A stretch of 64,000 nucleotides of DNA, from NCBI GenBank assembly GCA_903916255.1, contig CAIWVW010000004.1, positions 3,895-67,894 on the forward strand, given 5' to 3'. Shown here one piece after another: positions 35,652 through 57,659 of this stretch (positions within the stretch are counted from its first letter, which is position 1; every line of letters starts with the position of its first letter). Made by a program: the position numbers and the translations under genes. The DNA comes from an uncultured Bacteroidota bacterium (GTDB lineage: Bacteria; Bacteroidota; Bacteroidia; JABEUT01). The notes under the pieces were generated by a model, which saw only the letters and a program-made list of their open reading frames with translations, ran no database searches and was not told the origin of the DNA.

Positions 35652-35686
35652 TGTGAATTATGTAAAGTTTCCTGATAAATATGTAA
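35652..35686 (+). promoter_or_regulatory. Tandem 21-bp-period operator upstream of the tal-pgi operon
   Basis: TGTGAATTATGTAA-agtttcc-TGATAAATATGTAA; the same architecture recurs at 57481-57515 (minus). Confidence 0.75.
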
Positions 35687-35735
35687 GCATTAAAAGTAGT
35701 AATACCGCCATTTTTGTATTATATAAAACAACAGT

Positions 35736-38612
35736 ATGGGCACATTGATAGACTTGTTAAAATACGGGCAGAGTTATTGGTTGGATAATCTTACGCGGAA
35801 AAAGATAACAAGCGGGGAACTAACAAAAAGATTGTCTGAACAAGGCTTGCGTGGCATTACATCAAATCCCAGTATTTTCGACAAAGCTATTTCTGCCGGT
35901 ACCGATTATGATGAACAGATTGCAGCGCTGGTAAAAGCAGGAAAAACACCCTTCCAGATTTATGATGCATTGACTGTGAAAGATGTTCAGGACGCCTGTG
36001 ATATATTGAAACCTGTGTTTGCCGACTCTGATGGCAAGGATGGTTTTGTGAGTTTGGAAGTATCGCCTTATTTAGCGCGAGATACAAAAGGCACAATAAA
36101 AGAAGCGCATAGATTATCGGTTGCCGTCGGGCGGCCGAATTGCCTGATAAAAATACCTGGAACACAGGAAGGCATTCCGGCTATTGAACAAATGCTTTAT
36201 GAAGGGATAAATATAAATGTTACACTGCTCTTTTCCGTTGAAAGATATGTTGAAATTGCGCAAGCTTACATTCGCGCTATCGAGCGCAGAATTGCCGTAG
36301 GCAAACCTGTGAACCATATAATTTCGGTTGCAAGTATTTTTATCAGCAGGATTGATGTCCTTACAGATGAATTACTTGGGCAGCGAATTATTCCCTTGCA
36401 CGAAGATAGTGTGATTACCCATCCGGAATTCTTATCGGGTAAAGCGGGAGTTGCAACAGCCTGCTTGGCATATCAGCGGTTTAAAAAAATATTCAGCGGG
36501 GATGTTTGGGAAAAATTGGAGGCTAAAGGTGCTAATGTACAAAGGCCCTTGTGGGCAAGCACCAGCAACAAAGACCCATTGTATGATGACCTTCGTTATG
36601 TGGAACCGTTAATTGGTAAAAACACCATTAACACGCTGCCGGACGAGACTATTGCCGCTTTTGCCAAACATGGGATTTTAAGAGAAAATGCTATTGAAGA
36701 AAGGGTTGAAGAAGCAAACAAATTCTTCATGGAATTGGAAAAGCGCGGAATTGGAATTGATTTTATCACACAGCAATTAGAGAATGAAGGCATTCAAAAA
36801 TTTACCGATGCATATAATACGCTGATAAGTAATCTGGCAAATAAAAGATTGAAAATACTGGCAGATGAAGTTTCGGCGCAACAAATTAGTTTCGGAAAAC
36901 TTGAAAAGGAAGTAAATACATCCTATGCATCGCTGGCGGAGAAACAAATACCCAGGCTCCTTTTTGCTGAAGATGCGAATCTTTGGAAAAAAGACATTCC
37001 GCAAACAAAAGAAATTAGCCACCGCTTAGGTTGGTTGACATTGCCCGATAATTTTACTGAAAATACAGATGAACTCGTGACTTTTGCCATAAAGATTAAA
37101 GAGGAAGGCTATATATATGCTGTTTTGCTGGGTATGGGCGGAAGCAGCTTATGTTCCGAAGTGGCCCGCGAAACATTTGGCACTGCCGACGGGTTTCTTA
37201 AATTATTCGTGTTAGATAATACGTCTCCGGAAGCAATACTGGAACTCGAGAATAAAATTGATATTGAGAAAACGCTCTTTATTGTTGCAAGCAAATCGGG
37301 CAACACAGAAGAAACATTGAGTTTCTTTCACTATTTCTACAATGAATTAGAAAATAAAGGGGAGGAAAAACCCGGGAATAATTTTGTAGCAATTACCGAC
37401 GACGGTACTCCATTAGTAAAAATTGCTGAACAATATAAGTTCAGGAAAGTATTCGTTAACAACCCTGACCTTGGGGGGCGTTATTCTGTGTTATCCGATT
37501 TTGGTTTACTTCCAATGGCCTTGATGGGAGTAGATATTAAGGCGTTGTTATCAAGTGCCAAAAAAATGGAAAACAGTTGCGACAGTGTTCCGACGGAAGC
37601 TAATCCCGGAATAAGTTTAGGAGTGGTATTAGGTATTTGCCAAAAATATGGTCGTGATAAGGTAACATTCGTTTTATCTTCTTCAATAAGTTCCTTTGGT
37701 TATTGGGTGGAGCAACTGCTGGCGGAAAGTACCGGCAAAGAAGGAAAGGGATTGATTCCTGTAAATGGTGAACAATTGGGTGCTCCTGAAGTCTATGGAA
37801 ACGACCGAATATTTATCCACATGTATCTCCCGACGGATAATAATGAAGAAGACGAAAATAAAATTAAAGCGCTTGAGGAAGCGGGGCATCCCATAGTACG
37901 GATTCAAGTGGCAAATAAAATTGCATTAGGTGCAGAATATTATCGTTGGGAAATTGCCGCAGCCATTGCAGGGATAGTAATAGGCATCAATGCTTTCGAC
38001 CAGCCCAATGTAGAGGAAAGTAAAAAGAACACAAGCCATCTGCTTGAAGGATGGGCAAAAGAAGGCGCATTTAAGAAATCGGACCCGCTCTTAAAAGTGG
38101 AAGATATCTCTATTTATGGCGGAAAAAGGGCAGAACAGATTGGTCCCAAATACCATGAAACAATAGGAGAATTTGTCAACAGTTTTACTGCACAGGCAAA
38201 GCCGGGCGACTATATCGCTTTACTTCCCTATTTTCTGATGACTGAATACCGCACTGTACTCCTGCAAAAATGGAGACAGGAAATGAGGGACGAATTAAAA
38301 GAAGCGACAACATTATTAAATGGCCCGCGCTATCTGCACTCCACAGGCCAATTACACAAAGGCGGCCCGGATACCGGATTGTATATTATACTAATCGGGG
38401 AGGACGAAGAAGATTTAGTAATCCCCAATGAAAAATTCGGATTTGCAACTTTGCATCAGGCGCAAGCGCTTGGCGACTTCCGTTCATTGGATGATAAGGG
38501 GCGAAGGGTAATTCGCATTCATTTAGGTAAAGATATTGATGCAGGGCTTAACAAAATGCATTTATCAATAAGGGCTGCAAATAAGCAACCTGTGTTACAA
38601 GAAGTGGTATGA
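35736..38612 (+). CDS. tal-pgi: Bifunctional transaldolase / glucose-6-phosphate isomerase
   Basis: GQSYWLD, GITSNPSIF, IKIPGT, QRPLWASTS; then LGMGGSSL, SKSG, GGRYSVLS, FDQPNVE, HSTGQLHKGG. Confidence 0.95.
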   Translation: MGTLIDLLKYGQSYWLDNLTRKKITSGELTKRLSEQGLRGITSNPSIFDKAISAGTDYDEQIAALVKAGKTPFQIYDALTVKDVQDACDILKPVFADSDGKDGFVSLEVSPYLARDTKGTIKEAHRLSVAVGRPNCLIKIPGTQEGIPAIEQMLYEGININVTLLFSVERYVEIAQAYIRAIERRIAVGKPVNHIISVASIFISRIDVLTDELLGQRIIPLHEDSVITHPEFLSGKAGVATACLAYQRFKKIFSGDVWEKLEAKGANVQRPLWASTSNKDPLYDDLRYVEPLIGKNTINTLPDETIAAFAKHGILRENAIEERVEEANKFFMELEKRGIGIDFITQQLENEGIQKFTDAYNTLISNLANKRLKILADEVSAQQISFGKLEKEVNTSYASLAEKQIPRLLFAEDANLWKKDIPQTKEISHRLGWLTLPDNFTENTDELVTFAIKIKEEGYIYAVLLGMGGSSLCSEVARETFGTADGFLKLFVLDNTSPEAILELENKIDIEKTLFIVASKSGNTEETLSFFHYFYNELENKGEEKPGNNFVAITDDGTPLVKIAEQYKFRKVFVNNPDLGGRYSVLSDFGLLPMALMGVDIKALLSSAKKMENSCDSVPTEANPGISLGVVLGICQKYGRDKVTFVLSSSISSFGYWVEQLLAESTGKEGKGLIPVNGEQLGAPEVYGNDRIFIHMYLPTDNNEEDENKIKALEEAGHPIVRIQVANKIALGAEYYRWEIAAAIAGIVIGINAFDQPNVEESKKNTSHLLEGWAKEGAFKKSDPLLKVEDISIYGGKRAEQIGPKYHETIGEFVNSFTAQAKPGDYIALLPYFLMTEYRTVLLQKWRQEMRDELKEATTLLNGPRYLHSTGQLHKGGPDTGLYIILIGEDEEDLVIPNEKFGFATLHQAQALGDFRSLDDKGRRVIRIHLGKDIDAGLNKMHLSIRAANKQPVLQEVV

Positions 38613-39232
38613 AGCAGAAAAAAATCACGACTTTATTTTTGGATATAGGAGGCGTTTTGCTCACCAATGGCTGGGGGCAAATGGCACGCACTAAGACTGT
38701 GGCCCATTTTAAACTTGACAAGGATGAGGTAAATGAGCGGCATCACTTAACGTTCGATACGTATGAAGAAGGGAAATTAACACTCACCGAGTATTTGAAA
38801 AGGGTAATCTTTTATGAGAAAAGAAAGTTCTCGGAAAATGATTTTACAAAGTTCATGTTCAATCAATCTATTGCCTATCCTGATACAATTGCATATTTTA
38901 AAGAAATTAAAAAGCGGTATACCCTCAAAGTAATTGCTGTGAGTAATGAAGGAAGGGAATTAAATGCTTACCGCGTTAAAAAATTTAAACTGAATGAGTT
39001 ATTCGATGCTTTTATATCTTCTTCTTATGTTCACCTCCGCAAGCCGGATATGGACATATTCCGTATGGCAAGCGATATTTCACAAACCCTACCGGAGAAT
39101 GCCCTTTTTATTGATGACAGGCTGATGTTTGTTCAAGTAGCGCAAACCATGGGCATTAACGGAATACATTATGAGGGGCTGGAAAAACTAAAAACAGAAT
39201 TGAAAGCATTTGTGCTTACAAGCGCAAAATAA
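38609..39232 (+). CDS. HAD-family phosphatase (YihX-like)
   Basis: LFLDIGGVL, VSN, RKP, FIDD; ATGA overlap with tal-pgi. Confidence 0.88.
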   Translation: MKQKKITTLFLDIGGVLLTNGWGQMARTKTVAHFKLDKDEVNERHHLTFDTYEEGKLTLTEYLKRVIFYEKRKFSENDFTKFMFNQSIAYPDTIAYFKEIKKRYTLKVIAVSNEGRELNAYRVKKFKLNELFDAFISSSYVHLRKPDMDIFRMASDISQTLPENALFIDDRLMFVQVAQTMGINGIHYEGLEKLKTELKAFVLTSAK

Positions 39233-39250
39233 TTTAAGCATATAAATAAT

Positions 39251-40690
39251 ATGACAGAAGCTAAATATGATTACGGGATGATAGGGTTGGGCACAATGGG
39301 GCGCAACCTTGTTTTGAATATAACCGACCATGGGTATAGTGTGGCGGGGTTTGATAAGGACTCTTCGCAAGTGGAACTTTTAAAAAAGGATAGCGGCGAC
39401 AGGAGTATATATGCTTCTTCTGTATTAGAAGAATTTGTAGGTGCATTGAAGGCGCCGAGGGTAGTTATGTTACTTGTTCCTGCCGGGAAAATTGTAGATG
39501 AAGTGATTCAGGAATTGAAACCATTGTTATCCGGCGATGATTTACTGATGGATTGTGGCAATTCTCATTTTACGGACACGAATACCCGGATGGAGGAACT
39601 GGCGAAGTCAGGTATTCACTTTATGGGAGTCGGCATTTCCGGAGGCGAATCTGGTGCGCGGTATGGGCCGAGTATTATGCCCGGCGGGCCAAAAGATATT
39701 TACAAACATGTTGCCCCCATGCTGGAAGCTATTTCCGCAAAATTTGCAGGGGCACAAGATATTGTGCCCGAACCTTGTGTAACATGGCTTGGGCCGGGTT
39801 CCGCAGGGCATTATGTAAAAATGGTGCATAATGGTATTGAATATGGAATCATGCAACTTATTTCGGAAGTATACCATTTATTGAAAGTGGCCGGAAAAAT
39901 GAATAATGATGAGTTACACGAAGTTTTTTCAGAATGGAATAAGGGGATGCTTCTTTCATTTTTAATAGAAATTACGGCTGATATTTTTGCTCAAAAGGAT
40001 GCACTGACAGACAATAGCCTTGTTGATATGATTCTGGATAGTGCACATCAAAAAGGTACAGGAGGATGGACTTCCGAAGATGCTATGAAATTACAAGTAC
40101 CTCTTCCGGTTATAGATATTGCTGTTTCCATGCGCGATTTATCGGCCTATAAAAAAGAGCGTGAAGCCGCCGCACAAAAATTGGAAGGTCCCGGATATAG
40201 GTTTGAAGGTGATAAAAATGCATTAGTAACCTGGCTTGAACAAGCGCTTTATTTTTCAATGATTACAACCTATGCGCAGGGTATGTCTTTATTACATTTT
40301 GCATCCAAAGAATATAAATACGAATTAAAATTAGAGGACATTGCGAGCATTTGGAGAGGCGGATGCATCATACGTTCCTCCATATTGGATGATATAAAAT
40401 CTGCTTTCTCCCGCCAACCTGATTCAGCAACTATGTTGATGGATGAAAAGCTTTCGTTGAAATTAATGCAAGCGCAAATCGCAACCCGTAAAATAATCCA
40501 AATTGCTGTGGATACAGGAATCCCGGCTTCTGCAATGATGGGTTCACTGGCTTATTATGACAGTTATCGCAGCGCATGGCTGCCAGCAAATCTGATACAG
40601 GCGCAGCGCGATTATTTCGGTGCGCATACATATGAACGTAATGACCGGGAAGGAACTTTCCATACGAAGTGGAACCAAGAAAATAAATAA
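39251..40690 (+). CDS. gnd: NADP-dependent 6-phosphogluconate dehydrogenase
   Basis: [45 protein letters not shown]. Confidence 0.98.
39746..39773. repeat. Degenerate GTAG-type REP-like palindrome in frame inside gnd
   Basis: GCAG-GGGCACAA-GATA-TTGTGCCC-GAAC; encodes AGAQDIVPE. Confidence 0.6.
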
Positions 40691-40691
40691 T

Positions 40692-42203
40692 ATGAACACA
40701 CAGGCAAATACAGGTCCCACAATTATAATTATCCTCGGAGCAACGGGAGATTTGGCCTGGCGGAAATTGATTCCCGCTTTTTACAACCTCTATTTGGATA
40801 AATGGATACCCGACGAGTTTGCCGTTATCGGCATTGGTCGCGGGAAAATGTCAGATAAGGAATTTCAAAACCATTTACATGAAGGGGTAGATAAAAACTC
40901 GCGGAGAGGTAAATCGAAAAAGAATGAATGGGATAATTTCGCAAAATACCTCACCTACCATAAAGGCGAATTTAACGCGGATTCCACCTATTCGGAGGTA
41001 GAAAAGCAAATAAAAATTCTTGAAAAAAAATGGAAAGTTGTTGCAACCAAAATATTTTACCTGGCTGTTCCGCCTAATTCATTTGAAGAAATCGCATTAA
41101 AATTAGGTGCTTCCGGGCTTGCTAAAAATAAACTGAAAAGCCGTATTGTAATTGAAAAGCCGTTCGGGCATGACCTCGATAGCGCAAAGCATCTGAATGA
41201 TTTGTTACACGGAATTTTTGAAGAATGCCAGATTTACCGTATCGACCATTATCTCGGAAAAGAGACCGTACAAAATATACTTGCCTTTCGCTTTGCCAAT
41301 GCCCTGTTTGAGCCCACATGGAACCGGAATTATATTGACAGTGTTCAGATAACGGTATCCGAACAATTAGGCGTAGAAAACAGGGGCAATTATTATGAAA
41401 CTGCCGGCGCGCTTCGCGATATGATACAAAACCATCTGCTGCAATTATTTTGCCTCATTGCTATGGAGCCGCCTGTTTCTTTTGAAGCCGATGAAGTGCG
41501 AAACCGGAAGGTGGATGTGTTAAACGCCATCCGTAAAATCCGCCCGGAAGAAGTCCATCAAAATGCTGTGCGCGGCCAGTATGGCGCAGGCTGGATACAA
41601 GGTAAAAAAGTAAAAGGATACCGGCAAGAGCCCGATGTAAGTAAAACCTCGACGAAAGAAACATTTGCTGCCGTAAAACTTTTTATAGATAACTGGAGAT
41701 GGCAGGGAGTGCCCTTTTACTTGCGCACAGGCAAGCGGATGAATGAAACAATTTCCGTTATTACCATACAATTCAGGCCGGTGCCCCATCAATCATTTCC
41801 GGCAGAAGCTACAGGCAACTGGCAACCGAACAGGCTTGTATTGAATCTGCAACCGCACATGGGTATTCGTATGCGCTTCCAGGCAAAACGTCCCGGACTT
41901 AAAATGATTCTCTATCCTGTCGATATGCAATTCAACTATAACGAATCCTACCATTCGGGAACTCCCGAAGCGTATGAAACTTTGCTGTTGGATATTATGG
42001 AAGGTGACTCCACGCTCTTTATGCGTGCCGACCAGGTGGAAGCCGCATGGAAAGCGCTTATGCCAATTATCGACTCATGGGAAACAAACCCTTCCGTCAA
42101 CTTTCCCAACTATGAAGCTGGCATGCAAGGGCCGGAAGATTCGGAAGCGTTGATTGCAAAAGACGGACATAGTTGGGTTATAATGCCAACGGAAAAGAGT
42201 TGA
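40692..42203 (+). CDS. zwf: Glucose-6-phosphate 1-dehydrogenase
   Basis: [31 protein letters not shown]; start ATG 40692 right after the gnd stop. Confidence 0.98.
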
Positions 42204-42270
42204 AAGTGAAAAGTTAAAAGGAGAAATTTTAAACTTTATGAACTTTATAACTTTAGAAACTTTATGAACT
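42201..42270. repeat. Short tandem repeats between zwf and pgl
   Basis: TGAAAG TGAAAAG TTAAAAG, then AAACTTTAT GAACTTTAT AACTTTAG AAACTTTAT overlapping the pgl ATG. Confidence 0.6.
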
Positions 42271-42995
42271 CGGTTGACGTCTTTCAATCAATAGATGCGC
42301 TGAGGGAAGCCGTTGCTGAATATATTATAACGGTTTCAAAAAAATCCATTGCTGAAAGAGGCAGGTTCACAATCGCACTTTCGGGTGGGGATACGCCCCA
42401 AAAATTATATGCACTGTTAGCTAAAACACCCTACTCTGAACAGATAGAATGGAAAAAAACTTTTGTTTTTTGGGGCGATGAGCGCTGGGTTCCTTTCGAT
42501 GACAGGCGGAACAATGCGTATCAGGCAAAATCAATTTTGCTTGATAAAGTTACTATTCCGGCATCCAACATTCACCGTATCCCTGTTAATTTATCACCTA
42601 ATCAGGCGGCAATTAAATACGAAAAAGAACTACGGGCTTTTTTTGGAAATGAACCAATTCAATTTGACATGATACTGCTTGGCCTTGGCGAGAACGGGCA
42701 TACAGCCTCTCTTTTCCCCGGTACAAAAGTAATTCATGAACATGCGGAAGGTGTAAGGTTCGTTGAAATGAACCCGCCGATTGGCGGGCGAATTACCATG
42801 ACAGCCGCTTTAATTAACCAAGCGCATCACATACTTTTTCTTGTAACCGGAGAAAAGAAAGCGGTTATTTTAGAAAAAATTTTGGATGATTCATACCAAC
42901 CCAATCTATATCCTGCGCAGCTTATAAAACCCCTCCATGGAGATTTAATTTGGTTTGCAGACCAGGAAGCGGCATCGCTGATTAAGCAGTTTTAG
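42264..42995 (+). CDS. pgl: 6-phosphogluconolactonase
   Basis: ALSGGDTP, FWGDER, LGLGENGHTASLFP, RITMT, YPAQ. Confidence 0.97.
   Translation: MNSVDVFQSIDALREAVAEYIITVSKKSIAERGRFTIALSGGDTPQKLYALLAKTPYSEQIEWKKTFVFWGDERWVPFDDRRNNAYQAKSILLDKVTIPASNIHRIPVNLSPNQAAIKYEKELRAFFGNEPIQFDMILLGLGENGHTASLFPGTKVIHEHAEGVRFVEMNPPIGGRITMTAALINQAHHILFLVTGEKKAVILEKILDDSYQPNLYPAQLIKPLHGDLIWFADQEAASLIKQF
42773..42788. repeat. Short GC-rich hairpin in frame inside pgl
   Basis: CCCGCC-GATT-GGCGGG encoding PPIGG just before RITMT. Confidence 0.5.
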
Positions 42996-43067
42996 GGTTT
43001 ACTAGAAGATGAATGTTGAACAATTTTTGTTTTGAAACAGGGTAATAGATATGCCTAAAACTAACCT

Positions 43068-44387: not shown

Positions 44388-44399
44388 GAATTTTATTTT

Positions 44400-44418
44400 A
44401 TGCTATCAAAGATAGCAT
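44400..44418 (-). promoter_or_regulatory. -7 box embedded in an inverted repeat upstream of the HEPN gene
   Basis: ATGCTATC-AAA-GATAGCAT; minus strand contains TATCTTTG. Confidence 0.55.
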
Positions 44419-44444
44419 TTCAACAAATTCCCATATCTGGCAAA

Positions 44445-47400: not shown

Positions 47401-50400
47401 AATAAAATAGAGCTTGCAAGTTTACCATACAATTGCGCATCCGCTTCCGACGCATTTATTTGCCGCAACACTATCTGGCTGTGTGTCCAAGATAATTCAA
47501 ACACACGGTCTTTATGCGGTTTGTCCTGGTATTTATCAATCAGGTTGCGGCAGGCATCCTGAGTATCGGCAATACCTATAACCATATCAATCGTAACTTT
47601 TTCTTCCGGTTCAAGAACAATTTTGTAACGGATTGCAACAATCGGGTCCAATACCGAACCCTGGTTTCCTGAAAGCGGTCCCGGTTTATTCATCACCTGC
47701 GGATTCACAGTAGAATTTCTGCGACCAATAAATTCCAGGCGGTCGGTTTCGTAGGATACTTCCACTTTGTCTTTACCATGCAATGACATCAAATGGAACA
47801 TCCACGGCAATTGTTCATCTGCGGAGCGCGGCCTGCGGGTGCAAAGGATTGCATGCTGCGACGGAATAATTTCGGTTTGCACGAAAAGGTTGCTGAATGC
47901 GGGCTGCATCAGGTCGGATGCTGCCGGTGCAAGCACTACTTCGGCATAGCTTGTAACTTCAATAATTCGGCGGACATCGGAACTGTTGGTAATAACAACC
48001 CTCCTTATTTCAATATCATCTTCCGGTGAAACTACAATTTCTGTATGTGTTTCTATTTCGCTGTTGTTGTTTGTGAAATCTACACGCCCCTGCGAAAAAG
48101 CCGCTTCGTATTTATCGCCTTTTTTCAGTGTAGGCTGGTGTGCGTTTGACCAAAATGTTTCACTTTTCAAATCGCGTATATAGCAAAATGTCCCCCAGTT
48201 ATCACAGGTGCCATCCTCGCGCCAGCGTGTAACGGCAAGGTTTTTCCAACGGCTGTATCCGCCTCCTGCATTTGTTACCATCACATGGTATCTGCCGTTC
48301 GATAATAATTGCACTTCGGGAATTGGAGTGTTGGGAGTATTGATGATTCTGGTTTCAGTACCGCTCACAACATAATTTACATCTGTTATGTCTGTAGTAT
48401 GCGCAAAGAATGTAGTTGCTTTAGGAATACGTTCTTGCAGTAATAGAAGTGTTGCCATAAACTGTGGCTCCGCCTCAAATAATTTTTGCATAGGTTGGTC
48501 AAGCAGCAGATAGGCCAGCGACAGCAGGCTCATCCCCTGATGATGCGCCATGAATGAATACACGATGGCATTGGTTTGGCCCGGAGCCAACCGGGATGGT
48601 GTGTAATCTATTGCTTCATAAAACCCATATCGCCCTTCAAACCCTTTTTTGGCAAGCAGTTCCAGGTTTTCACATGCTTTTTCTGGCGCAACCATCAAAG
48701 CAAGCGCAGATGCATAGGGGGCAATAACGGAATCTTCTTCCAGTCCGCGTTTTAAACCAAGCCCCGGTGCGCCAAATGCACGATACTGGTAATTGGAATT
48801 AGCGTTTACCGTATTATATCCCGATTCAGAAATCCCCCATGGCAAGCCTGATTTTTTCCCGTATTTAATTTGCCATTCCACCGCTGCATTATACGTTTGG
48901 TCGAGCAGTGTATTTTCATAGGTGGGCATCACTAAAAGTGGCATAAGGTATTCGAACATCGAACCGCTCCAAGAGAGAAGAATAGGGTCTCCATTCACGT
49001 TAGTAAGCAAGCGCCCCAATGCAAACCAACTCTGTTCAGATAGTTTTCCTTGTGCAATACCAATAAAGGTACATAGCCTGGCTTCTGATGCAAGCAAATC
49101 GTAATAACTTGCATCCATTCGGTGTTCCTGCACATTATACCCAATCGTAAACAAAGAGCTTGATTTATCCAATAAGAAATCCCATTCCATATCGGCCAGT
49201 TCATGACTTTGCCGGGCAAGGGTTTCAGCTAAACTAATCCTTTCCTCCGCAAGCGCAATTGATTTTGATAAAGAAATTTTAAATGCTTCCAGCCACTCAT
49301 TTTCGGAAGAAGTATTGCTTTCAGTTTTAGAATGGCTTACTATATTTTGAAGTTCCAGCGCAGTTTCCAATAATTCGAGCAATGTTGAATTTGTGTCCAT
49401 TGAAACAAGATATATGAATTTCGACGGGGCATTCATCAGCATGGCCCATGGCGCAAAAATTTGAAAATATTCATTGCTTTGCTCTATTTGCTTTTGTAAT
49501 AATATCTTCCACCAGTAGATTTCACTCTGCACATCATTATTTAACTTATCAAAAATGGAACTGAATTTATTTGTTAATGCTTCTATATGATAAATTACTT
49601 CGTGCCGTGTAATCAGGTCAAGCTTGCAGATGTTATCCAAATCGATTTTAAATTGTTGCAAAAGCGCTTTATCCTTTTCCTCAATGGTGTCAATAAGCAC
49701 GTATAACGTATCCCGCAACCCTTCAAATAAATTCACGCCAATTATTTTTTGGTGCGGTATGGCAAGCAACCCTTGTTTGAGTATAATCAGATATCCGGCA
49801 AGGTTTCCGCTATCAACAGTGGATATATACTTTGGCAATAACGGGCTTAATGTTTCAGTATCATACCAATTATAAAAATGGCCCCTGTAGCGTTCCATTT
49901 TTTTCATAGACTCTATTGTCTTTCTTGTTCGGTCAATAAATTCTCCGGTGGTAATATAGCCGAAATCCGAGGCAGATAAATTGGCAAGCAATGAAATGCC
50001 AATATTGGTTGGGGAAGTGCGGTGCGCTATTAATGAAACAGGTTGTTCCTGGAAATTATCAGGCGGCAAAAAATTATCTTCCTGCACAACAAACCGTTCA
50101 AAATAGCTCCAGGTTTTCCTTGCAACTTTCCTTAGGAAGATATTTTGTTCATCGGTAAGTGCTGCCACCGGTTTCGCAATCGGCCTGCTTATTCTCCATG
50201 TTATAATGGGTGTAATAAACCACAGGAACAATATAGGACTGACAATGATTAACTTTCCGGGAGAATAAAATGCTATGTAGAAAAGTAATGTTGAAGCAAG
50301 AAATGGTTCAATCCACATGGAAGAATAACTATAAACTAATCGCTTTTGGTAGCTGGCTGACGAATTTGATGATGGGTTCCATTCAAGAAGTTTTTTCCGC

Positions 50401-53195
50401 GTTATGAGCATTCGGAAAAGCGTTAGCAGTATGGCCTTCACATTTGAATATGCTTCGTAGGGCAGGCATATCAACATAAATAAAGTTCTTACAGAAACAT
50501 CCCAAATGTTGTGAATTGAATTTCGTATGTGATGCGTGAAAATTACATTTTTGGGTTTATGGGCAATATCCCAAATGGAATTAATTATAATAGGGGTAAG
50601 AATGATACCTGAAACAATTATTGTCCATAATAAAGAAGACGGCAGCACAATCCAGGCTGCAACCAGTAAGACCGTAAGTGTTATAGGAACAAGGCTTCGC
50701 CGTACATTGTCGAATATTTTCCAACGCGATAAAGCGGATACCGGGTTTTTATGCCAATGCCGGTCCGACCCCGGAACAAAAGGTAAAAACCATGAAAAAA
50801 TCTGCCAGTCACCGCGAACCCAGCGCGAGAACCTTTTCATATCGGCGCTATAACTCATAGGATATTTCTCAAACAATTGGACATCACTCAACAAGCCTGA
50901 CCGCACATAACACCCCTCTAATAAATCATGGCTAAGAATGCTGTTTTCCGAAAATTTTCCTTCCAATACTTTTCTGAAAATATCAACCTCATAAATCCCT
51001 TTTCCTATAAAGGAGCCCTCCTCGAATAAATCCTGATAAACATCGGATGATGCCCTTGTATAAGGGTCAATGCCGGGTACATTCCCATGCATGCGGGCAT
51101 ATACCGAACCGCTGATTCCGGGCAGGCTCACTGTTACTCTCGGTTGCAGGATGCCATATCCTTTTGTTATGCGTTTCTTACTTTCGTCATACCAGGCGTG
51201 GTTCAACGGATGCGCCATTGACCCAATTAATTTACAGGCTGTACCAAGCGGCAATTCTGTATCAGCATCCAGTGTAATTACATATTTTATAAGCGGGAAA
51301 ATGGATTGGTCACCAATAATGTGTGAAAAATTTTCTTTTAATTCTCCGCGCAATAAAGAGTTCAACGCAGATAATTTGCCGCGCTTTCTTTCATACCCCA
51401 TCCATGCATTTTCCTTAGGGTTCCAAAGCCGTGGACGATGAAAAAGAAAAAATAAATCATTTTTTTCTCTCCCGTATTTTTTGTTCAGCTCTTCAACTCT
51501 CTGCCGGGTAAGGCTAATGAGTGCTTCATCTTCCGGAAGTGTTTCCTGCGGTGCATCAGTAAAATCAGTTAATAAACCAAAATGTAAATTATTATTTCTA
51601 TTTGCCAGAAAACGGATTTCTAATGCTTCAACCAGAACTTCTATTTCCGCAGCGTTAGCAAGCATTACGGGGATTACAACCAAGGTTCGGAATTCGGGCG
51701 GAATATCCTTCGAGAAATCCATTCTGGGCAACAAATGCGGCTTAACCAATAAAGTAGAAATAAAATTAACAACTGATATTGCAAGCTGACTTATGCAGAG
51801 CAGTAGAAGTAAGGCGCTTGCGGCAAGAAGCCAATAGCTTTTTAAATCAGAATGGGCTCTCAGTAATATAGCTGCACTTAGTATTGCTGTAATTAATACG
51901 ATTGAACCAAAATAGACTATGAAGGCCTGCCGTTTCAATACTTGCCGCATTATTTGCATTGGCGGCTCGTGCATTTTTGCCTTGGTTTTGGTCAATTTCA
52001 GGCCATCTCCAATCAGGTAATAACCAACATGCGATGTGCGTCCGCCTTTATGGTTTACGGATATATTTTCATGCGTTAATTGTATTGCAATCTTTGCAAT
52101 TTCATGCTCCGATAGCTTGCTTTTCTTTGCAATGTCCTCTATAACGTGCCGGTACCTGTCGCGCGTGGCAAAATCCATTTGACTGTAAATTCCATTGGTA
52201 TCTTGCCGCAATGTTTGTTCGACGATACTGTGCTTTTCGACAAAATCGCGCCAATCTACAGCGCCAATTAATCGAAGGCTGCCAATACTGTTGCTCATGG
52301 AAACCTGGTCAGCCGCCTGTTTTTGAATTTCCGCACTTACCAATTCTGAACTTGTCAGTCCGCTTTCCGCCAATTGCTGTTCAATCCAGTTAAGAGAGAG
52401 TGCCAATTCCGGGCCTTTTCCGCGCAACTGGCGGGTTAATTCAGATACAAATGCGCTCCCGATAGGCGGATTGGAGCGCGCCATATCGGCAATTACCAAT
52501 ATCAGATTTTTAGGGTCTTTTTCGGAAGTGTCAATCATTTGTCCGGCCCAGTATTCTGCGAGGTTCCTGTCGACCCTGTCGATTGCAATACGTGATGAAA
52601 CACGTCGGAGGTTTTCTATCAATGCAAGGCGAAGCATAATGGGTATGGCCCATAATTCACCTAATTGCAAATTGGTGATGGTTTGGTAAGCCGTTATAAA
52701 ACCGCCGAGGCTTTCCATATCTACCCTTCCGTCGCTGTGGGAAATTATTTGCAGAACGATGTCGTATATGCGTGTCAGCCCAACAGAATTACCCGTTACA
52801 AGTTGAGGCAAATCCTCGCTGTAATCTTTTGGAAAGTGCGTTTTAGCATTGCGGATATGTTCTTCTATAAGGTAAAAATTGTCAATCAGCCATTCACCTG
52901 CGGGTGTAATCTGGTATTTTCTTTTTATGGAATCAGCCAGAAGCTTCCGTACCTCGCTCAAAAGGATTTCATTATTTGAAAGCCGTTTGAGCAGATGGTC
53001 TTTCGAGGGCTTTGTACTTAATTTATGAATTCCCGCAAGGGCTTTTCCAAAACGCTCCATCTGGTCAGAACTGAATAATTCGGCCCGCAGAGGCTCCTCG
53101 TTCTGGTAACTAAGCTTGGAGTTTTTCGTTTGAAAAAGGCCCCTCATATTTGCTATGAGTTCATGGGCCGCAGGTATAAATTTTATTTTAGCCAT
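44445..53195 (-). CDS. ndvB: Cyclic beta-1,2-glucan synthase (Cgs/NdvB; GT84 + glucoamylase-like + GH94)
   Basis: 2916 aa; EWLIDNFYLI, ERKRGK, TLDADT, SHDLLEG, RWVRGDWQ, WSGSMFEYLMP, QSGGAFGYRDQLQD, GDWND, RENGGQYTH, WYTGSAGW. Confidence 0.95.
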   Translation of the reverse strand: MAKIKFIPAAHELIANMRGLFQTKNSKLSYQNEEPLRAELFSSDQMERFGKALAGIHKLSTKPSKDHLLKRLSNNEILLSEVRKLLADSIKRKYQITPAGEWLIDNFYLIEEHIRNAKTHFPKDYSEDLPQLVTGNSVGLTRIYDIVLQIISHSDGRVDMESLGGFITAYQTITNLQLGELWAIPIMLRLALIENLRRVSSRIAIDRVDRNLAEYWAGQMIDTSEKDPKNLILVIADMARSNPPIGSAFVSELTRQLRGKGPELALSLNWIEQQLAESGLTSSELVSAEIQKQAADQVSMSNSIGSLRLIGAVDWRDFVEKHSIVEQTLRQDTNGIYSQMDFATRDRYRHVIEDIAKKSKLSEHEIAKIAIQLTHENISVNHKGGRTSHVGYYLIGDGLKLTKTKAKMHEPPMQIMRQVLKRQAFIVYFGSIVLITAILSAAILLRAHSDLKSYWLLAASALLLLLCISQLAISVVNFISTLLVKPHLLPRMDFSKDIPPEFRTLVVIPVMLANAAEIEVLVEALEIRFLANRNNNLHFGLLTDFTDAPQETLPEDEALISLTRQRVEELNKKYGREKNDLFFLFHRPRLWNPKENAWMGYERKRGKLSALNSLLRGELKENFSHIIGDQSIFPLIKYVITLDADTELPLGTACKLIGSMAHPLNHAWYDESKKRITKGYGILQPRVTVSLPGISGSVYARMHGNVPGIDPYTRASSDVYQDLFEEGSFIGKGIYEVDIFRKVLEGKFSENSILSHDLLEGCYVRSGLLSDVQLFEKYPMSYSADMKRFSRWVRGDWQIFSWFLPFVPGSDRHWHKNPVSALSRWKIFDNVRRSLVPITLTVLLVAAWIVLPSSLLWTIIVSGIILTPIIINSIWDIAHKPKNVIFTHHIRNSIHNIWDVSVRTLFMLICLPYEAYSNVKAILLTLFRMLITRKKLLEWNPSSNSSASYQKRLVYSYSSMWIEPFLASTLLFYIAFYSPGKLIIVSPILFLWFITPIITWRISRPIAKPVAALTDEQNIFLRKVARKTWSYFERFVVQEDNFLPPDNFQEQPVSLIAHRTSPTNIGISLLANLSASDFGYITTGEFIDRTRKTIESMKKMERYRGHFYNWYDTETLSPLLPKYISTVDSGNLAGYLIILKQGLLAIPHQKIIGVNLFEGLRDTLYVLIDTIEEKDKALLQQFKIDLDNICKLDLITRHEVIYHIEALTNKFSSIFDKLNNDVQSEIYWWKILLQKQIEQSNEYFQIFAPWAMLMNAPSKFIYLVSMDTNSTLLELLETALELQNIVSHSKTESNTSSENEWLEAFKISLSKSIALAEERISLAETLARQSHELADMEWDFLLDKSSSLFTIGYNVQEHRMDASYYDLLASEARLCTFIGIAQGKLSEQSWFALGRLLTNVNGDPILLSWSGSMFEYLMPLLVMPTYENTLLDQTYNAAVEWQIKYGKKSGLPWGISESGYNTVNANSNYQYRAFGAPGLGLKRGLEEDSVIAPYASALALMVAPEKACENLELLAKKGFEGRYGFYEAIDYTPSRLAPGQTNAIVYSFMAHHQGMSLLSLAYLLLDQPMQKLFEAEPQFMATLLLLQERIPKATTFFAHTTDITDVNYVVSGTETRIINTPNTPIPEVQLLSNGRYHVMVTNAGGGYSRWKNLAVTRWREDGTCDNWGTFCYIRDLKSETFWSNAHQPTLKKGDKYEAAFSQGRVDFTNNNSEIETHTEIVVSPEDDIEIRRVVITNSSDVRRIIEVTSYAEVVLAPAASDLMQPAFSNLFVQTEIIPSQHAILCTRRPRSADEQLPWMFHLMSLHGKDKVEVSYETDRLEFIGRRNSTVNPQVMNKPGPLSGNQGSVLDPIVAIRYKIVLEPEEKVTIDMVIGIADTQDACRNLIDKYQDKPHKDRVFELSWTHSQIVLRQINASEADAQLYGKLASSILFTNPVFRADPAILINNHRGQSGLWGYSISGDLPIVLLKIEKQTNMQLVKQLIQAHAYWRLKGLAVDLVIWNEEHGGYRQVFQNEIQALIPAELTDRPGGVFVRASDQISNEDRILFQTVARINISDNGGTLADHVKRKPLSKLVIPYITKPEKYQPDLTPIVVPTDLIFHNGLGGFTPDGLEYVIVVDNKNKTPAPWVNVIANPNFGTVVSESGSAYTWTENAHELRLTPWNNDPVSDSGGEAFYIRDYETGQFWSTTLLPSGGETPYITRHGFGYSVFEHMEDGIYTEMTVYVDIDAAIKFTVLKIKNQSGRARKLSVTGYTEWVLDNNRMKAAMYTHTEVDPDSGALFAKNPYNTEFSSRVAFFDVDFIKKTFTSDRTEFIGRNGTLQNPDAMSRMKLSGRIGLALDPCAAIQVPFDLADGEENEIIFRLGAGKTAAEASATARQFRGSAVAHDALERVKQNWNHIMGALKVETPDAAINMITNGWLTYQTISSRLWGRSGFYQSGGAFGYRDQLQDVLSLLHTVPHLARGQILLSASRQFKEGDVQHWWHPPIGNGVRTRCSDDYLWLPLATALYVSTTGDTGVLDENVSFIEGRQLNPGEESYYDTPTKSNTSVKLYDHCVQAIKHGFTFGKHGLPLIGAGDWNDGYDKVGNEGKGESVWMAFFLYDVLIRFEGIARLYASKSPDGGEGDLFAEECKKQAQQLKENIDKNAWDGEWYKRAWFDNGTPLGSSVNEECKIDSIAQSWSVISGAGSPERVNTAMESAYKNLVKKDAGIIQLLEPPFDKSNLNPGYIKGYVPGVRENGGQYTHAAVWMIMAFAKLGDNKRVWELLNMINPINHGKTAEAIAIYKVEPYVLAADVYAREPHAGRGGWTWYTGSAGWLYQLIVEYFLGMKQDANKLKFAPCVPEEWETFKIHYRYWNTMYHICFTQKKLEVGSEQLAVEMQVIVDGVEQADKTITLADDGVEHNVEVKLNIQNTLEV
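44564..44598. repeat. Five 7-bp tandem repeats inside the 3' end of cgs
   Basis: CAACTGC TAACTGC TCACTGC CAACTTC TAACTTT; encodes KLEVGSEQLAVE. Confidence 0.7.
45319..45353. repeat. REP-like hairpin in frame inside cgs
   Basis: AAGTCCCC-ttcgcccccatcc-GGGGATTT-GGAGGC; encodes ASKSPDGGEGDL. Confidence 0.55.
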
Positions 53196-53198
53196 ACG

Positions 53199-54839
53199 TT
53201 ATACTAAAGCAGCATTGACAATATCCTGCGCTTCATCAATAATTTTCTTTACATGGTCCTTTCCTGAAAAACTCTCCGCATAAATCTTATAAATATCTTC
53301 CGTTCCGGATGGGCGGGCTGCAAACCAGCTGTTTTCTGTAACAACCTTTACACCCCCAATTGATGCATTGTTCCCCGGGGCTACAGTGATGATATTTTTT
53401 ATTTCTTCTCCCGCTAAATCTTTATGTTTTATTTGGGAAGCGGAAAGTTTTTTCAGCTTTTCTTTTTGCTGGGGTGTTGCTTTTGCTTCAATCCTTTCAT
53501 ATACAGGTTCACCTAACTCTTTTGTAAGTTCATTATATAATATGCCGGGGTCTTTACCCATTTTTGCAGTAATCTCTGCCGAGAGTAATGCCGGAATAAA
53601 GCCATCCTTATCGGTGGTCCACACACTTCCGTCTAAACGGGAGAATGATGCACCTGCGCTTTCTTCCCCGCCAAAACAAAGTGATTTATCCAGCAAACCT
53701 TCAACGAACCATTTGAAACCAACAGGCACCTCATACAGTTTTCTTCCAAGCTTTGAAGTGATGCGGTCAATTAACTGTGTGCTTACAACAGTTTTGCCTA
53801 CTGCTGCCGCTTTCGACCACCCCGGACGATTTTGCAGGAGATAAAAAACAGCAACCGATAAATAATGATTGGGGTTTAATAGCCCTGCGCTTTTTGTAAC
53901 AATTCCATGCCGGTCGTGGTCCGTGTCGCAGGCAAAAGAAATATCAAAATAGTCTTTCATTTCAATCAACCTTTGCATGGCGTAAGGAGATGAGGGGTCC
54001 ATACGGATTTGCCCATCCCAATCCACGGTCATGAAACTAAATGTAGGGTCGACTATTTTATTTACGACAGTCAAATCCAAATGATAGCGCTCTGCAATCG
54101 GCTCCCAGTAGTGCACTCCGGCACCACCAAGCGGGTCAACGCCCATTTTTATTTTCGACTTACGGATGGCATCCATGTCAATTACATTCCCAAGGTCATT
54201 TATATAGGTATGTAAATAATCATGCCGATGTGTGGTAGAAGCATGGAGCGCTTTATCAAAAGAAATCCGTTTCACTTCCTTAAGTTTATTCTCCAGTAAT
54301 TCGTTTGCTTTTGCCTCAATCCAATTGGTGACTTCAGTTCCTGCCGGCCCGCCATTTGGCGGATTATATTTAAAACCTCCGTCGTCAGGCGGATTATGCG
54401 ATGGCGTAATTACAATACCATCCGCCAAACCGATTTTCCTTCCGTAATTATATTTTAAAATAGCGTGGGAAATAACGGGAGTAGGGGTGTATTCATCACC
54501 TTCGGCAATCATTACTTCCACGCCATTGGCCGCAAGCACTTCCATGGTAGTTGCAAAAGCAGGAGCCGAGAGCGCATGGGTATCGAAGCCCAAATATAAT
54601 GGCCCATCGAATTTTTGTATTTTCCTATAGAGACAAATAGCTTGTGTAATTGCAAGAATATGGTTTTCGTTAAAAGCATTATCTAAAGAGGAACCCCGAT
54701 GGCCGGATGTTCCGAATGAAACACATTGAGAAGGGGTGGAAGGGTCCGGTATTCCCGCATAATAGGCTGTTAAAAGCCTGGGTACATTTACCAGCATATT
54801 TTGTTCCGCCGGTTTTCCGGCATAAGGGCTTATTTCCAT
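53199..54839 (-). CDS. pgm: Phosphoglucomutase (alpha-D-glucose-1,6-bisphosphate dependent)
   Basis: FGTSGHRG, TPSHNPP, DTDHDR, GEESAG, RPSGTE; ATG at 54839 overlaps the rpiB stop (TAATG), giving 546 aa. Confidence 0.97.
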   Translation of the reverse strand: MEISPYAGKPAEQNMLVNVPRLLTAYYAGIPDPSTPSQCVSFGTSGHRGSSLDNAFNENHILAITQAICLYRKIQKFDGPLYLGFDTHALSAPAFATTMEVLAANGVEVMIAEGDEYTPTPVISHAILKYNYGRKIGLADGIVITPSHNPPDDGGFKYNPPNGGPAGTEVTNWIEAKANELLENKLKEVKRISFDKALHASTTHRHDYLHTYINDLGNVIDMDAIRKSKIKMGVDPLGGAGVHYWEPIAERYHLDLTVVNKIVDPTFSFMTVDWDGQIRMDPSSPYAMQRLIEMKDYFDISFACDTDHDRHGIVTKSAGLLNPNHYLSVAVFYLLQNRPGWSKAAAVGKTVVSTQLIDRITSKLGRKLYEVPVGFKWFVEGLLDKSLCFGGEESAGASFSRLDGSVWTTDKDGFIPALLSAEITAKMGKDPGILYNELTKELGEPVYERIEAKATPQQKEKLKKLSASQIKHKDLAGEEIKNIITVAPGNNASIGGVKVVTENSWFAARPSGTEDIYKIYAESFSGKDHVKKIIDEAQDIVNAALV

Positions 54840-55324
54840 TAGTGTTTTAAATTTTGAGTTTTCTCGAGTTCCGCAACTTTTGCCAGGCGACGGATATGCC
54901 TTTCGACATCGATGAATTTTGCAGCCAAAAAAATGGTTGTGAGTTTCCATGCAAGGGTGTGGTCAACAACGCGGCCGCCAAGGCACATCATATTCATGTC
55001 ATCGTCTTCTACCCCTTGATTGGCTGAAAATTTTTCATTAATCAGGCAAGCCCTTACTCCATTCACTTTATTTGCGGCTATGCAAGCCCCGACCCCGCTG
55101 CCGCAAATGGCTATGCCACGGGTAATCTCACCTTTTGCTATTGCAAAGGCAAGTGGAATTACATAATCAGGATAATCATCCTGCGGCTTCATTTCGCTGT
55201 CGCCAAAATCTATTACCTCATATCCTGCTTCATTCAGTTTCTCCAATAAGTATTCCTTCAGTTCAAATCCTGCATGGTCCGCTGCAATACCAATATGTTC
55301 TATTTTCTCCGGATGATTATTCAT
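54839..55324 (-). CDS. rpiB: Ribose-5-phosphate isomerase B
   Basis: [31 protein letters not shown]. Confidence 0.95.
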
Positions 55325-57428
55325 GTTTATTCTTTTTTAATAATGCAATTGCACGCTCACAAATATTTTCAACGGTGAATCCGTATTCGCGCATCATTAC
55401 TTCCCCGGGGGCTGAAGCACCGAAAGTATCAATGCCTATTACTTCCCCTTTATCGCCAACGTATTTATTCCAACCTTGGGTTACGCCTGCTTCAACCGCT
55501 ATTCTTGTATGAATTGACGGGGGCAACACCGTATCACGGTATACTTGGGTTTGCGCTTCAAATAATTCCCAACTGGGCATGGAAACAACACGTACTGCAA
55601 TATTCTGTTCACTTAGTTTTTCCTGTGCTTCTACAATTAAATGGACTTCTGAACCGGTTGCTATAAGTATTAATTCCGGATTAACATCCGGGGCATATGA
55701 TAGAATATACGCACCAAAACGAAGCCAGTCCGCAGAAGCGAATTTTTTCCTGTCGAGCGTTGGCAAATCTTGACGCGTTAAAATTAATGCCACAGGAGCT
55801 TTACTTGATTCTATGGCCATTCGCCATGCCATAGCAGTTTCATTAGCATCGCAAGGACGGATAACAATCAATCGTGGAATTGCGCGGAGGGCCGCAAGAT
55901 GTTCTATCGGTTGATGCGTTGGGCCATCCTCACCCATAGCAATACTATCGTGCGTAAAAACAAAAACGGTATTCAATTCCATTAATGCGGCAAGGCGAAT
56001 TGCAGGGCGCATGTAATCTGAAAAAGTGAGGAATGTAGCGCAGAATGGGAGAATGCCGCCATGTGCAGCCATTCCGTTAGAAATGGAGGCCATGCCATGT
56101 TCGCGAACGCCAAATTGCAAATTACGCCCGGCATAACTCCAGCCGCCTGCGGCAGAGCCTTGCAAATCGCCGACAGCCATAGTTGGGTTTTCAAAGTTCC
56201 CGGCATCTTTAAGTTCTGTATATGTTGATGTATTTAAATCGGCGGAGCCGCCAATAAACCCGGGCAGGTTATGATAAAAAGCCTGCATAATTTTTCCGGA
56301 AGCAACCCGCGTAGCCATTCCTTTAGCATCCGCAGGAAATTCAGGAATAGTTGCATCCCATTCGGGCGTAAGTTTTCCATTCATCAGATAAAAAAGTTCC
56401 TTGGCAAGCTCCGGGTATTCCTTTTTATATGTGGTAAATTTCTTTTCCCATTCTTTCCCTGACTGTTCTCCTTGCTTAATTGCTTTATGAAAATGAAGTT
56501 CTGCTTCCTTCGGAATTAAAAAAGAAGGTTCGACAGGCCAGCCCAAATTTTCTTTTGTCCGCTTTACTTCATCCACACCTAAAGGTGAGCCATGCGCCGA
56601 GCATTTGTCTTGCTTATTGGGTGAACCATAACCAATATGTGTGTGGACTAAAATCAGCGATGGACGTTCTGTTTCCAACTGGGCCGCCCGAATAGCATTC
56701 TCTATTGCGCCCAAATCGTTCCCATCTTCAATGGATTGCGTATGCCATCCATACGCTTCAAATCGCTTTGCATGGTCTTCCGTGAAAGTTACCGGAGTAG
56801 CGGATGCAAGCGTAATATGGTTATTGTCGTACAGATAAATTAATTTTCCGAGTTTCAGGTGGCCCGCAAGCGGAGCAGCTTCGGCAGACACACCTTCCAT
56901 CAGGTCGCCGTCACTTACTATTCCGTAGGTGTAATGATTTATAATTTCATTTCCGTGTTTGTTGTAGCGTGCCGCAAGATAGGCTTCGGCTATTGCCATG
57001 CCCACACCATTCGCGAATCCCTGTCCGAGCGGGCCTGTGGTAGTTTCAACGCCGGGTGTTAAACCCCGTTCCGGATGGCCGGGAGTTTTACTTCCCCATT
57101 GGCGAAATTGTTTAATATCCTCTAACGATAAATCATACCCTGTTAGATGCAGTAAACTATAAAGCAACATGGAGCCATGTCCGGCAGACAATACAAACCT
57201 GTCCCGATTAAACCACTGCGGATTTGCAGGATTATGCTGAAGGAACTTCGTCCATAATACATATGCCATAGGCGCAGCACCTAAGGGTAACCCCGGATGT
57301 CCGCTGTTAGCTTTTTGTATAGCATCAACAGAGAGAAAACGGATTGTGTTGATGCAAAGTTCATTCTGATTTATTTTGTTGCTTGCTGTTAACTGCTTAC
57401 TATTTCTCTTTTTAATTTGTGTGTCCAT
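55317..57428 (-). CDS. tkt: Transketolase
   Basis: [56 protein letters not shown]. Confidence 0.99.
57376..57403. repeat. Four 7-bp repeats inside the 5' end of tkt
   Basis: TTGTTGC TTGCTGT TAACTGC TTACTAT; the unit TAACTGC is shared with the cgs array. Confidence 0.5.
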
Positions 57429-57480
57429 ATAGCACCCTTTAATTTTTATATAAAGGACTATAATTTCGGACGGGCAGATG

Positions 57481-57515
57481 TTACATAATTTAGGTGGAAT
57501 GTTGCATAATTCACA
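57481..57515 (-). promoter_or_regulatory. Tandem 21-bp-period operator upstream of the tkt operon
   Basis: Minus strand TGTGAATTATGCAA-cattcca-CCTAAATTATGTAA. Confidence 0.75.
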
Positions 57516-57616: not shown

Positions 57617-57659
57617 AATATTTAAAAGCATACAGAATTATTAAAATTAAAAGATATAC

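Follow-up and report, generated by a model that had tools for sequence, protein, structure and literature searches.

The NADPH-making pathway and cyclic β-1,2-glucan synthesis of an uncultured Bacteroidota bacterium seem to be wired into a stress regulon, probably under a small AraC-type regulator

The stretch of DNA analysed here (“the window”; 64,000 nucleotides (nt) of contig CAIWVW010000004.1, positions 3,895 to 67,894, assembly GCA_903916255.1) comes from an uncultured Bacteroidota bacterium of the lineage JABEUT01 and carries two convergent sets of metabolic genes, each of which is preceded by a promoter module of the same build. The first set (35736..42995, plus strand) comprises the oxidative branch of the pentose phosphate pathway together with transaldolase and phosphoglucose isomerase (PGI), as judged from open reading frames (ORFs) and Pfam matches. 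It consists of a tal-pgi fusion (35736-38612), a HAD phosphatase gene (38609-39232), gnd (39251-40690), zwf (40620-42203) and pgl (42264-42995), which overlap or are separated by gaps of less than 65 nt. The product of tal-pgi is a bifunctional transaldolase/phosphoglucose isomerase, matching the NCBIfam equivalog NF007080 with 1150.7 bits (cut-off 712) over residues 3-948. The second set (44445..57428, minus strand) consists of tkt (55317-57428), rpiB (54839-55324), pgm (53199-54950; TIGR01132, 860 bits) and the gene of a 2916-amino-acid (aa) cyclic β-1,2-glucan synthase (cgs, 44445-53195), with overlaps or 4-nt gaps between them. The glucan synthase aligns full-length with the NdvB structure 8rf0_A (1957.7 bits) and contains the Pfam GH94 supersandwich and catalytic domains. 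Given their tight packing, both gene sets are plausible operons, referred to as operon 1 and operon 2.

Upstream of both operons, the 14-mer TGTGAATTATGYAA is found, with two exact matches in the window (35652-35665, plus strand; 57515-57502, minus strand) and none in 100 dinucleotide shuffles. In the 76-nt tal-pgi module (35647..35722, plus strand; 50.7 bits with the position weight matrix (PWM) described below), the distal unit TGTGAATTATGTAA (35652-35665; predicted -69..-56) is followed after N7 by the proximal unit TGATAAATATGTAA (35673-35686; predicted -48..-35). The heptamer TTTGTAT follows exactly 26 nt past the latter, and the -7-like octamer CATTTTTG occupies 35709-35716. The predicted transcription start lies near 35721, which would leave a leader of 15 nt ahead of the ATG at 35736. 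The tkt module (57445..57520, minus strand; 76 nt, 48.4 bits) repeats this arrangement, with the distal unit TGTGAATTATGCAA (57515-57502), N7, the proximal unit CCTAAATTATGTAA (57494-57481), TTTATAT exactly 26 nt past it and the -7-like octamer GTCCTTTA (57458-57451); here, a start near 57446 and an 18-nt leader to the ATG at 57428 are predicted. Both start codons are found 15-20 nt beyond the -7-like octamers. The two modules are identical in 34 of 50 motif columns, compared with 24 of 116 flanking and spacer columns. Since identity is concentrated in the motif columns, the motifs appear constrained and recent duplication is excluded, which argues that selection on the motif, and not common descent, accounts for the likeness of the modules.

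The module is a recurrent element of this genome (G000; 3.74 Mb, 149 contigs). The heptamer TATGYAA occurs 1747 times genome-wide, and its pairs stand out at a single start-to-start distance, with six pairs at 21 bp versus 0-2 at each other distance between 6 and 44. A more extended pattern is common to these six tandem sites, namely (G)TGTGAATTATGYAA, then TATGTAA, then TTTG at positions 27-30 past the latter. A first PWM, built from their conserved columns, gave 30 genome matches above 14 bits, of which 27 were kept; the three lowest (18.4, 16.7 and 15.3 bits), being without boxes, were discarded. With the PWM rebuilt from the 27 sites, members score 39.0-63.1 bits and the next matches 15.3 and 12.7, while five locally shuffled genomes give no match above 12.0 bits. 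A reading of TGTGA as a Crp/Fnr half-site was tried and rejected, as none of the first six sites has a TCACA partner 6 nt on (0/6).

At 25 of the 27 sites, an ORF of at least 50 aa starts in the same orientation within 450 nt downstream; the other two are a site at the end of a contig and a site without an ORF of this kind. Thirteen sites are located on the minus strand of a single contig (C145, 25,076-49,298), forming a stress island whose targets include CsbD, DUF5670 (lmo0937-like), Pmp3, Dps/ferritin, YceI, OmpA, DUF748 and BrkB proteins, four PAP2 proteins, ice-binding-like type IX secretion system (T9SS) proteins, MlaEFD and an AI-2E transporter. Targets off the island are a Zn-dependent alcohol dehydrogenase (Zn-ADH), SHOCT and WXXGXW proteins, a HAD-like protein and several small unknowns. 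In total, three DUF5670 genes lie behind sites in this genome. Behind the 27 sites, a regulatory unit is found just once, as an operon encoding an AraC-type protein, a PAS hybrid kinase and a receiver. By its gene families, this target set has the content of a general stress and envelope regulon.

Two observations concern the arrangement of the sites. At C94:7884 (plus strand, 42.6 bits), no ORF of at least 50 aa is present within 450 nt, and the transcript may encode a very small protein or act as an RNA. Further, modules can stand back to back between divergent genes (e.g., DUF5670 / WXXGXW), with their distal units nearly touching, as at C37:27975 (-) / 27981 (+) of this genome; other such pairs are L015 6363/6390, L027 3203/3253, L041 4127/4192 and L089 2775/2843.

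The anatomy of the module is best seen in 143 sites from other species, whose consensus reads.aAtgTGTGAAT.ATGTAActttTt...a.A.TT.TgTAAca.tt ... cA.cTTTgt. Self-similarity among these sites peaks at shifts 21 (4.22) and 9 (3.11) and is at most 1.55 elsewhere; hence, the unit is TGTGA-N4-TGTAA, repeated head-to-tail after 21 bp. The proximal unit is degenerate and retains A..TT.TGTAA. At a fixed distance of 26 nt past it lies a -7 box (nAnnTTTG), whose first base is mostly C, not T, and no -33 element is present at the sites where the proximal unit sits. Tandem direct repeats with a period of the 21-bp type are known from AraC at I1-I2, XylS, RhaS and MelR, and one AraC-type domain reads two adjacent major grooves. 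The lack of a -33 element combined with a sigma-A-type -7 box fits dependence on an activator. In Flavobacterium, the sigma-A -7 box TAnnTTTG is located at -12..-5 (PMC9723704); on this placement, the proximal unit is predicted to cover -48..-35 and the distal unit -69..-56, with predicted centres at -41.5 and -62.5. This would be the layout of a class II activator-dependent promoter. In the supplements searched of the Flavobacterium psychrophilum transcription start site atlas (PMC9723704), there was no row for the CsbD gene THC0290_1200, and no small AraC protein was recognised.

Much of this had been anticipated in a first-pass annotation of the window. Direct reading agrees with its description of both site pairs, with their N7 gaps, 21-bp period, 26-nt spacing and -7 octamers, and its gene calls for both operons are borne out by ORFs, Pfam, NCBIfam and the structure-sequence match. 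The tandem 21-bp geometry to which it drew attention is real and conserved, given the six pairs at 21 bp and the shift-21 peak in the 143 sites, and its suggestion that a weak core promoter points to activator dependence gains from the -7 box being retained and the -33 element being absent under the proximal half-site. The genome scan with a PWM, proposed there as a check, returns a discrete class of 27 sites far from background. The unnamed regulon that it postulated is supported by computation; two promoters were too few, there being about 27 here and a spread over the phylum.

The best candidate for the regulator is encoded outside the window, on the stress island, at C145:43626-44204. It is a protein of 193 aa whose operon has its own module upstream and also encodes a PAS hybrid histidine kinase (1075 aa) and a receiver-only protein (143 aa). 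Pfam assigns HTH_18 (1.9e-17) and HTH_AraC (2.5e-12), and the C-terminal domain (~100 aa) has the two helix-turn-helix (HTH) motifs of the AraC/XylS family. In an AlphaFold2 (AF2) model with a mean predicted local distance difference test (pLDDT) score of 83.9, this domain matches the structures of MarA (1xs9/1bl0), YesN, AraT, AraC (2k9s) and SoxS (7w5w) with E-values from 1e-4 to 2e-3. The N-terminal domain of the model (~60 aa) has a beta-alpha-beta-beta-alpha-beta, ferredoxin/HMA-like fold with weak matches to CopZ/Atx1 (E 0.12-0.16). In NCBIfam, every match stays below the cut-off of its model (best 58.9 bits versus 200), so the regulator is without a named subfamily. Across sixteen orthologues drawn from different families, identity ranges over 56-96%, with YSSVAHLSNQFKK, the second HTH, unchanged in all of them. 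A complex prediction of the regulator with the receiver-only protein scored 0.01 against a mark of 0.32, with controls not folded. Two paralogues of the regulator are present in this genome (C71:20371-20835 and C52:943-1509; 52% and 42% identical), and these could blur co-occurrence tests.

Motif and regulator gene tend to occur together in related genomes. As a stringent marker we used the strict pattern GTGAWTNATGYAA-N14-TRTGTAA, which is present in 20 of 41 relatives, while the reversed-pattern control is found in none (0/41). Of the 23 genomes from other families, 11 have a regulator orthologue (E <= 1e-60), and seven of these show the strict pattern, as against none of the 12 without an orthologue; the four orthologue-bearing genomes that lack a strict match still have PWM sites adjoining the regulator gene. 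All 12 regulator loci of relatives carry sites (22-58 bits), and the gene order regulator-kinase-receiver is kept in seven of them.

On the scale of the phylum, at least 584 regulator-encoding stretches were found at one genome per species, of which the best 80, all from named species, were analysed with a site threshold of >18 bits. At least one site is present in 72 of these 80 loci, with 168 sites in 856,620 bases and none in the reversed-sequence control. The set includes Flavobacterium, Chitinophagales, Cyclobacteriaceae, Prolixibacteraceae, Saprospiraceae, Pontibacter, Ignavibacteria and Melioribacteraceae. In 32 loci, the -7 box ends 18-72 nt ahead of the regulator start codon; 63 loci have the kinase and 57 a receiver-only gene. 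The first complete ORF after each of the 168 sites was also considered: 14 sites had none, 36 led to the regulator itself and were set aside, 29 by a filter and seven by hand, and 118 first genes were analysed. These comprise Ice_binding (13), CsbD (8), DUF5670 (8), OmpA (6), YtxH (5), receiver-only (5), Cupin_2 (5) and DUF6600 (3) proteins, two with an outer-membrane beta-barrel only, 50 without a Pfam family and 13 of one family each, which include Dps/ferritin, DJ-1/PfpI, MlaE and Band_7.

Conservation at the two metabolic operons was assessed at the orthologous tkt and zwf loci taken from the 41 genomes, where “no site” means none above 5 bits. Full-length genes of this type are accessory, tkt being present in nine genomes and zwf in seven, nearly all of the same genus. 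A site lies upstream of tkt in five of eight assessable copies (G005, 39.8 bits; G013, 48.2; G012:C174, 42.3; G004, 47.3; G007, 22.6), one further copy not being assessable as the contig ends inside the gene (G016). For the tal-pgi/zwf operon, three of five assessable copies have a site: G005 (49.5 bits, with a 196-aa ORF between), G006 (46.6 bits, with a pgi-only first gene) and G012:C174 (25.1 bits, with a 67-aa ORF between); contig ends preclude an assessment in G013:C116 and G012:C118. The tkt operon adjoins the regulator gene in G013 and G012. Two of these loci have also changed in gene content: in G005 (L003, G005:C33, 8745-9877), cgs is reduced to fragments (residues ~2364-2649 and 2787-2913), with tkt-rpiB-pgm and the module intact, and in G006 (L015, G006:C13, 3961-5810), the operon opens with a 587-aa pgi-only gene, the transaldolase half being missing and the module kept.

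From the motif, its spacing, copy number and conservation, the linkage to the regulator gene and the fold of the regulator, all obtained by computation, we infer what follows on binding, on activation versus repression, on transcription starts, on the signal and on the physiological role. We consider it likely that both sites in the window are class-II-type activator-dependent sigma-A promoters of a general-stress-like regulon, that the 193-aa AraC-type regulator is their most likely binder and that the two operons were recruited into this regulon. An activator encoded outside the window had been foreseen by the first-pass annotation, and the AraC/XylS-family protein on contig C145, with the module on its own operon, is the best candidate by computation. 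Co-occurrence of AraC genes with the motif, which it named as a test of the idea, holds in 72 of 80 loci of the phylum set and 12 of 12 loci of relatives and is imperfect at phylum scale; in other Bacteroidota, for which it likewise suggested a scan, the regulator loci show the module spread over the phylum. Its guess of “general or osmotic stress” also appears fair, the module-bearing genes being mostly general-stress and envelope genes.

Several results weigh against this reading. The rebuilt PWM is circular for its own 27 sites; the score gap below 39.0 bits nevertheless indicates a discrete site class. The -7 box of the tkt module, GTCCTTTA, is poor. The strict pattern is rare in a sample of the phylum, with nine carriers among 251 high-quality genomes; five of these have an orthologue at E <= 1e-60 and four have only distant family members (profile E 2e-72 to 3e-39), and 22 orthologue-bearing genomes of this sample are without a strict match. 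Many lineages have TRTATAAC in the proximal unit; the strict pattern is, therefore, too narrow as a phylum marker, and little weight attaches to these counts. Among the relatives, G006 (94% complete) has three strong sites and a regulator match at paralogue level only, and G005 (70% complete) has sites and no regulator match. More generally, linkage marks the regulator gene as a conserved member of the regulon, not its product as the binder. At the metabolic operons, no site is found at tkt in G012:C5, G010 and G018 or at tal-pgi/zwf in G010 and G018. Finally, the 118 first genes behind sites in other species include no pentose phosphate enzyme, and tblastn (E <= 1e-20) found no pentose phosphate gene near the regulator in the 80 loci. 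As no pentose phosphate gene was found under the module outside the genus, the metabolic arm is a lineage-specific recruitment into an old regulon. The pentose phosphate and cyclic-glucan operons, the only two members known to the first-pass annotation, are an addition in part of this genus only.

As a separate observation, three genomes of one family (G053, G058 and G063; f39) carry canonical strict-pattern sites together with only distant members of the regulator family (profile E 3e-39 to 1.5e-50).

Of the other explanations, the one that survives best accepts the sites as real regulon promoters and assigns them to a different binder, be it a LytTR- or OmpR-type response regulator or an unrecognised factor, the AraC gene being only a conserved target. 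Direct repeats of 21 bp are indeed not specific to AraC, as LytTR- and OmpR-type domains also use repeats of ~21 bp; the strict motif and close orthologues co-occur imperfectly, with G006 and G005 having sites without a close orthologue; and receiver-only genes make up five of the 118 first genes. Yet the eight LytTR genes of this genome are all located outside the island and none of them follows a site, the 27 sites lead to no regulatory unit other than the AraC/kinase/receiver operon, and 72 of 80 regulator loci carry sites versus none in the control. Moreover, TGTRA boxes 9 bp apart suit a two-HTH AraC domain. On balance, we regard another binder as unlikely, while taking it as the most serious competitor.

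Improbable, in our view, is a second alternative, in which the TGTAA boxes are a repressor operator that occludes the -33 region and stress relieves the repression. The proximal unit does overlap the expected -33 position, and sequence alone does not tell activation from repression. However, lacking a -33 element and with a -7 box that mostly begins with C, the bare promoter should be weak, and unit centres predicted at -41.5 and -62.5, at a rigid distance from the -7 box, are what activators typically show, whereas a repressor needs no fixed phasing. Very little speaks for the module being the promoter of an alternative sigma factor of the extracytoplasmic function (ECF) type, with TGTAAC as its -35 element. 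Such a factor would explain a rigid bipartite sequence with fixed spacing, and stress regulons of other phyla do use alternative sigmas; but the sigma-A-type nAnnTTTG lies 26 nt past TGTAA, well beyond an ECF spacer, a second upstream unit of the same sequence stands at 21 bp, and neither the 19 sigma-70-family genes of the genome (0/19 downstream of a site) nor the 118 first genes (no sigma gene) provide a candidate. That the likeness of the two sites in the window is due to chance, or is a duplication remnant without function, can practically be dismissed in view of the 0/100 shuffles, the peak at 21 bp only, the 34/50 versus 24/116 identical columns and the retention of orthologous sites in five other species.

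If the AraC-type regulator is the activator of these promoters, the following mechanism can be proposed. Each unit would be occupied by one regulator protomer, whose two HTHs would contact its pair of TGTRA boxes, spaced by 9 bp; the proximal unit would replace the -33 element, and the protomer bound there would recruit RNA polymerase. Since regulator, kinase and receiver would be co-transcribed from a promoter of the same type, the system would be subject to positive autoregulation, and the signal would presumably enter via the PAS hybrid kinase. Under stress, operon 1 (tal-pgi/HAD/gnd/zwf/pgl) would supply NADPH. In operon 2 (tkt/rpiB/pgm/cgs), pgm would feed glucose-1-phosphate into periplasmic cyclic β-1,2-glucan. 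Stress may, thus, raise reducing power and osmoprotective glucan alongside CsbD, Dps and similar proteins.

A broader proposal, for and against which we see the balance as even, is that the HMA-fold/AraC regulator, the PAS hybrid kinase and the detached receiver act as master switch for a general stress response shared across the Bacteroidota, which would rely on class II activation at a rigid tandem TGTRA site instead of an alternative sigma factor. In this genus, the switch would have captured central carbon metabolism, directing glucose-6-phosphate towards NADPH and cyclic β-1,2-glucan.

The surroundings of the two operons hold three further features. Between the convergent operons lies an ApeA-like HEPN gene (43068-44387, minus strand; Pfam HEPN_Apea and ApeA_NTD1), which has no tblastn match in the 16 loci of relatives; in G005 and G012, pgl abuts cgs directly. 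This suggests that a defence-type gene was inserted here recently. Directly upstream of the tkt module (57582-57936, minus strand), three out-of-frame ORF pieces resemble a receiver domain (MEKIKCIIVDD..., ...DMKMPEITDIDFLKAISYKPSAMILSS...); recognised by eye, this is probably a frameshifted response-regulator pseudogene. Further on, a TPR-repeat protein (58078-60000, plus strand; Pfam TPR families) with a membrane helix has a C-terminal end that is LuxR/GerE-type HTH-like by eye, and gives a weak match to the NCBIfam “BT3442 family” (65.9 bits versus a cut-off of 940).

Bacteroidota dominate guts, soils, lakes and oceans. In the literature searched, with subscription journals outside its coverage, we found no description of the module and its regulator, nor any Bacteroidota counterpart of RpoS, sigma-B or EcfG. 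A rigid, recognisable module together with a highly conserved candidate regulator would allow a stress regulon to be predicted from the sequence of many genomes, and culturable carriers exist, e.g., Flavobacterium and Pontibacter. The window adds to this a metabolic arm, with the oxidative pentose phosphate branch and the cyclic-glucan synthase operon seemingly under one switch. In this way, an NADPH-making pathway and a cyclic-glucan synthase seem to be wired into a Bacteroidota stress response, with a small AraC-type regulator probably in charge.

Comparison with known systems places the module closest to the AraC family in its geometry. As with AraC at araI1-araI2 (E. coli pBAD), XylS at Pm, RhaS/RhaR and MelR, two half-sites are arranged head-to-tail about 21 bp apart, the candidate regulator has a two-HTH C-terminal domain, and the proximal half-site, at its predicted position of -48..-35, would lie over the -35-equivalent region of a weak primary-sigma promoter. 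Unlike AraC, the regulator has an N-terminal domain of ~60 aa that is ferredoxin/HMA-like and not a cupin for sugar binding and dimerisation, with no small-molecule-binding domain evident. Its gene is, furthermore, linked with those of a hybrid kinase and a receiver-only protein, the promoters are of the Bacteroidota -7/-33 type, and about 27 of them, not a single catabolic operon, carry the module.

SoxS and MarA are single-domain monomers that act on one ~20-bp box. The present system differs from them and from Rob in having two tandem units and an extra N-terminal domain, so it does not conform to the single-box monomer scheme. It resembles them as a predicted AraC/XylS-family stress activator acting on zwf and NADPH supply, the C-terminal domain of the model superposing on MarA and SoxS; activation of zwf by SoxS in E. 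coli is described in PMC4018673. Here, beyond zwf, the whole oxidative branch and tal-pgi, plus the tkt-rpiB-pgm-cgs operon, would be covered. The parallel suggests how redox and osmotic protection are coupled in these bacteria.

With the receiver-AraC (REC-AraC) proteins YesN and AraT and with the hybrid two-component systems of Bacteroides, the system shares a kinase and a receiver in the same operon, and the C-terminal domains of YesN and AraT are the structural matches of best identity to the DNA-binding domain of the regulator (29% and 28%). In the REC-AraC proteins, the receiver forms the N-terminal part of the regulator, whereas here it is encoded by a gene of its own, as a protein of 143 aa. 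In content, the regulon is reminiscent of those of sigma-B in Bacillus and Listeria, EcfG/PhyR in Alphaproteobacteria and RpoS, with CsbD, YtxH, Dps, DJ-1/PfpI and OmpA-like proteins and a control operon that would be autoregulated. Unlike in these, a sigma-A -7 box is kept and combined with an activator site, and no dedicated sigma factor is found within the regulon (0/19).

Cgs/NdvB/ChvB enzymes make a periplasmic, osmoprotective glucan. The synthase of operon 2 is similar to those of Agrobacterium, Brucella and Sinorhizobium over its full length, including the GH94 part and the supersandwich domain. In contrast to them, it belongs to a Bacteroidota host and is encoded in an operon with tkt, rpiB and pgm, under what is predicted to be a stress-regulon promoter.

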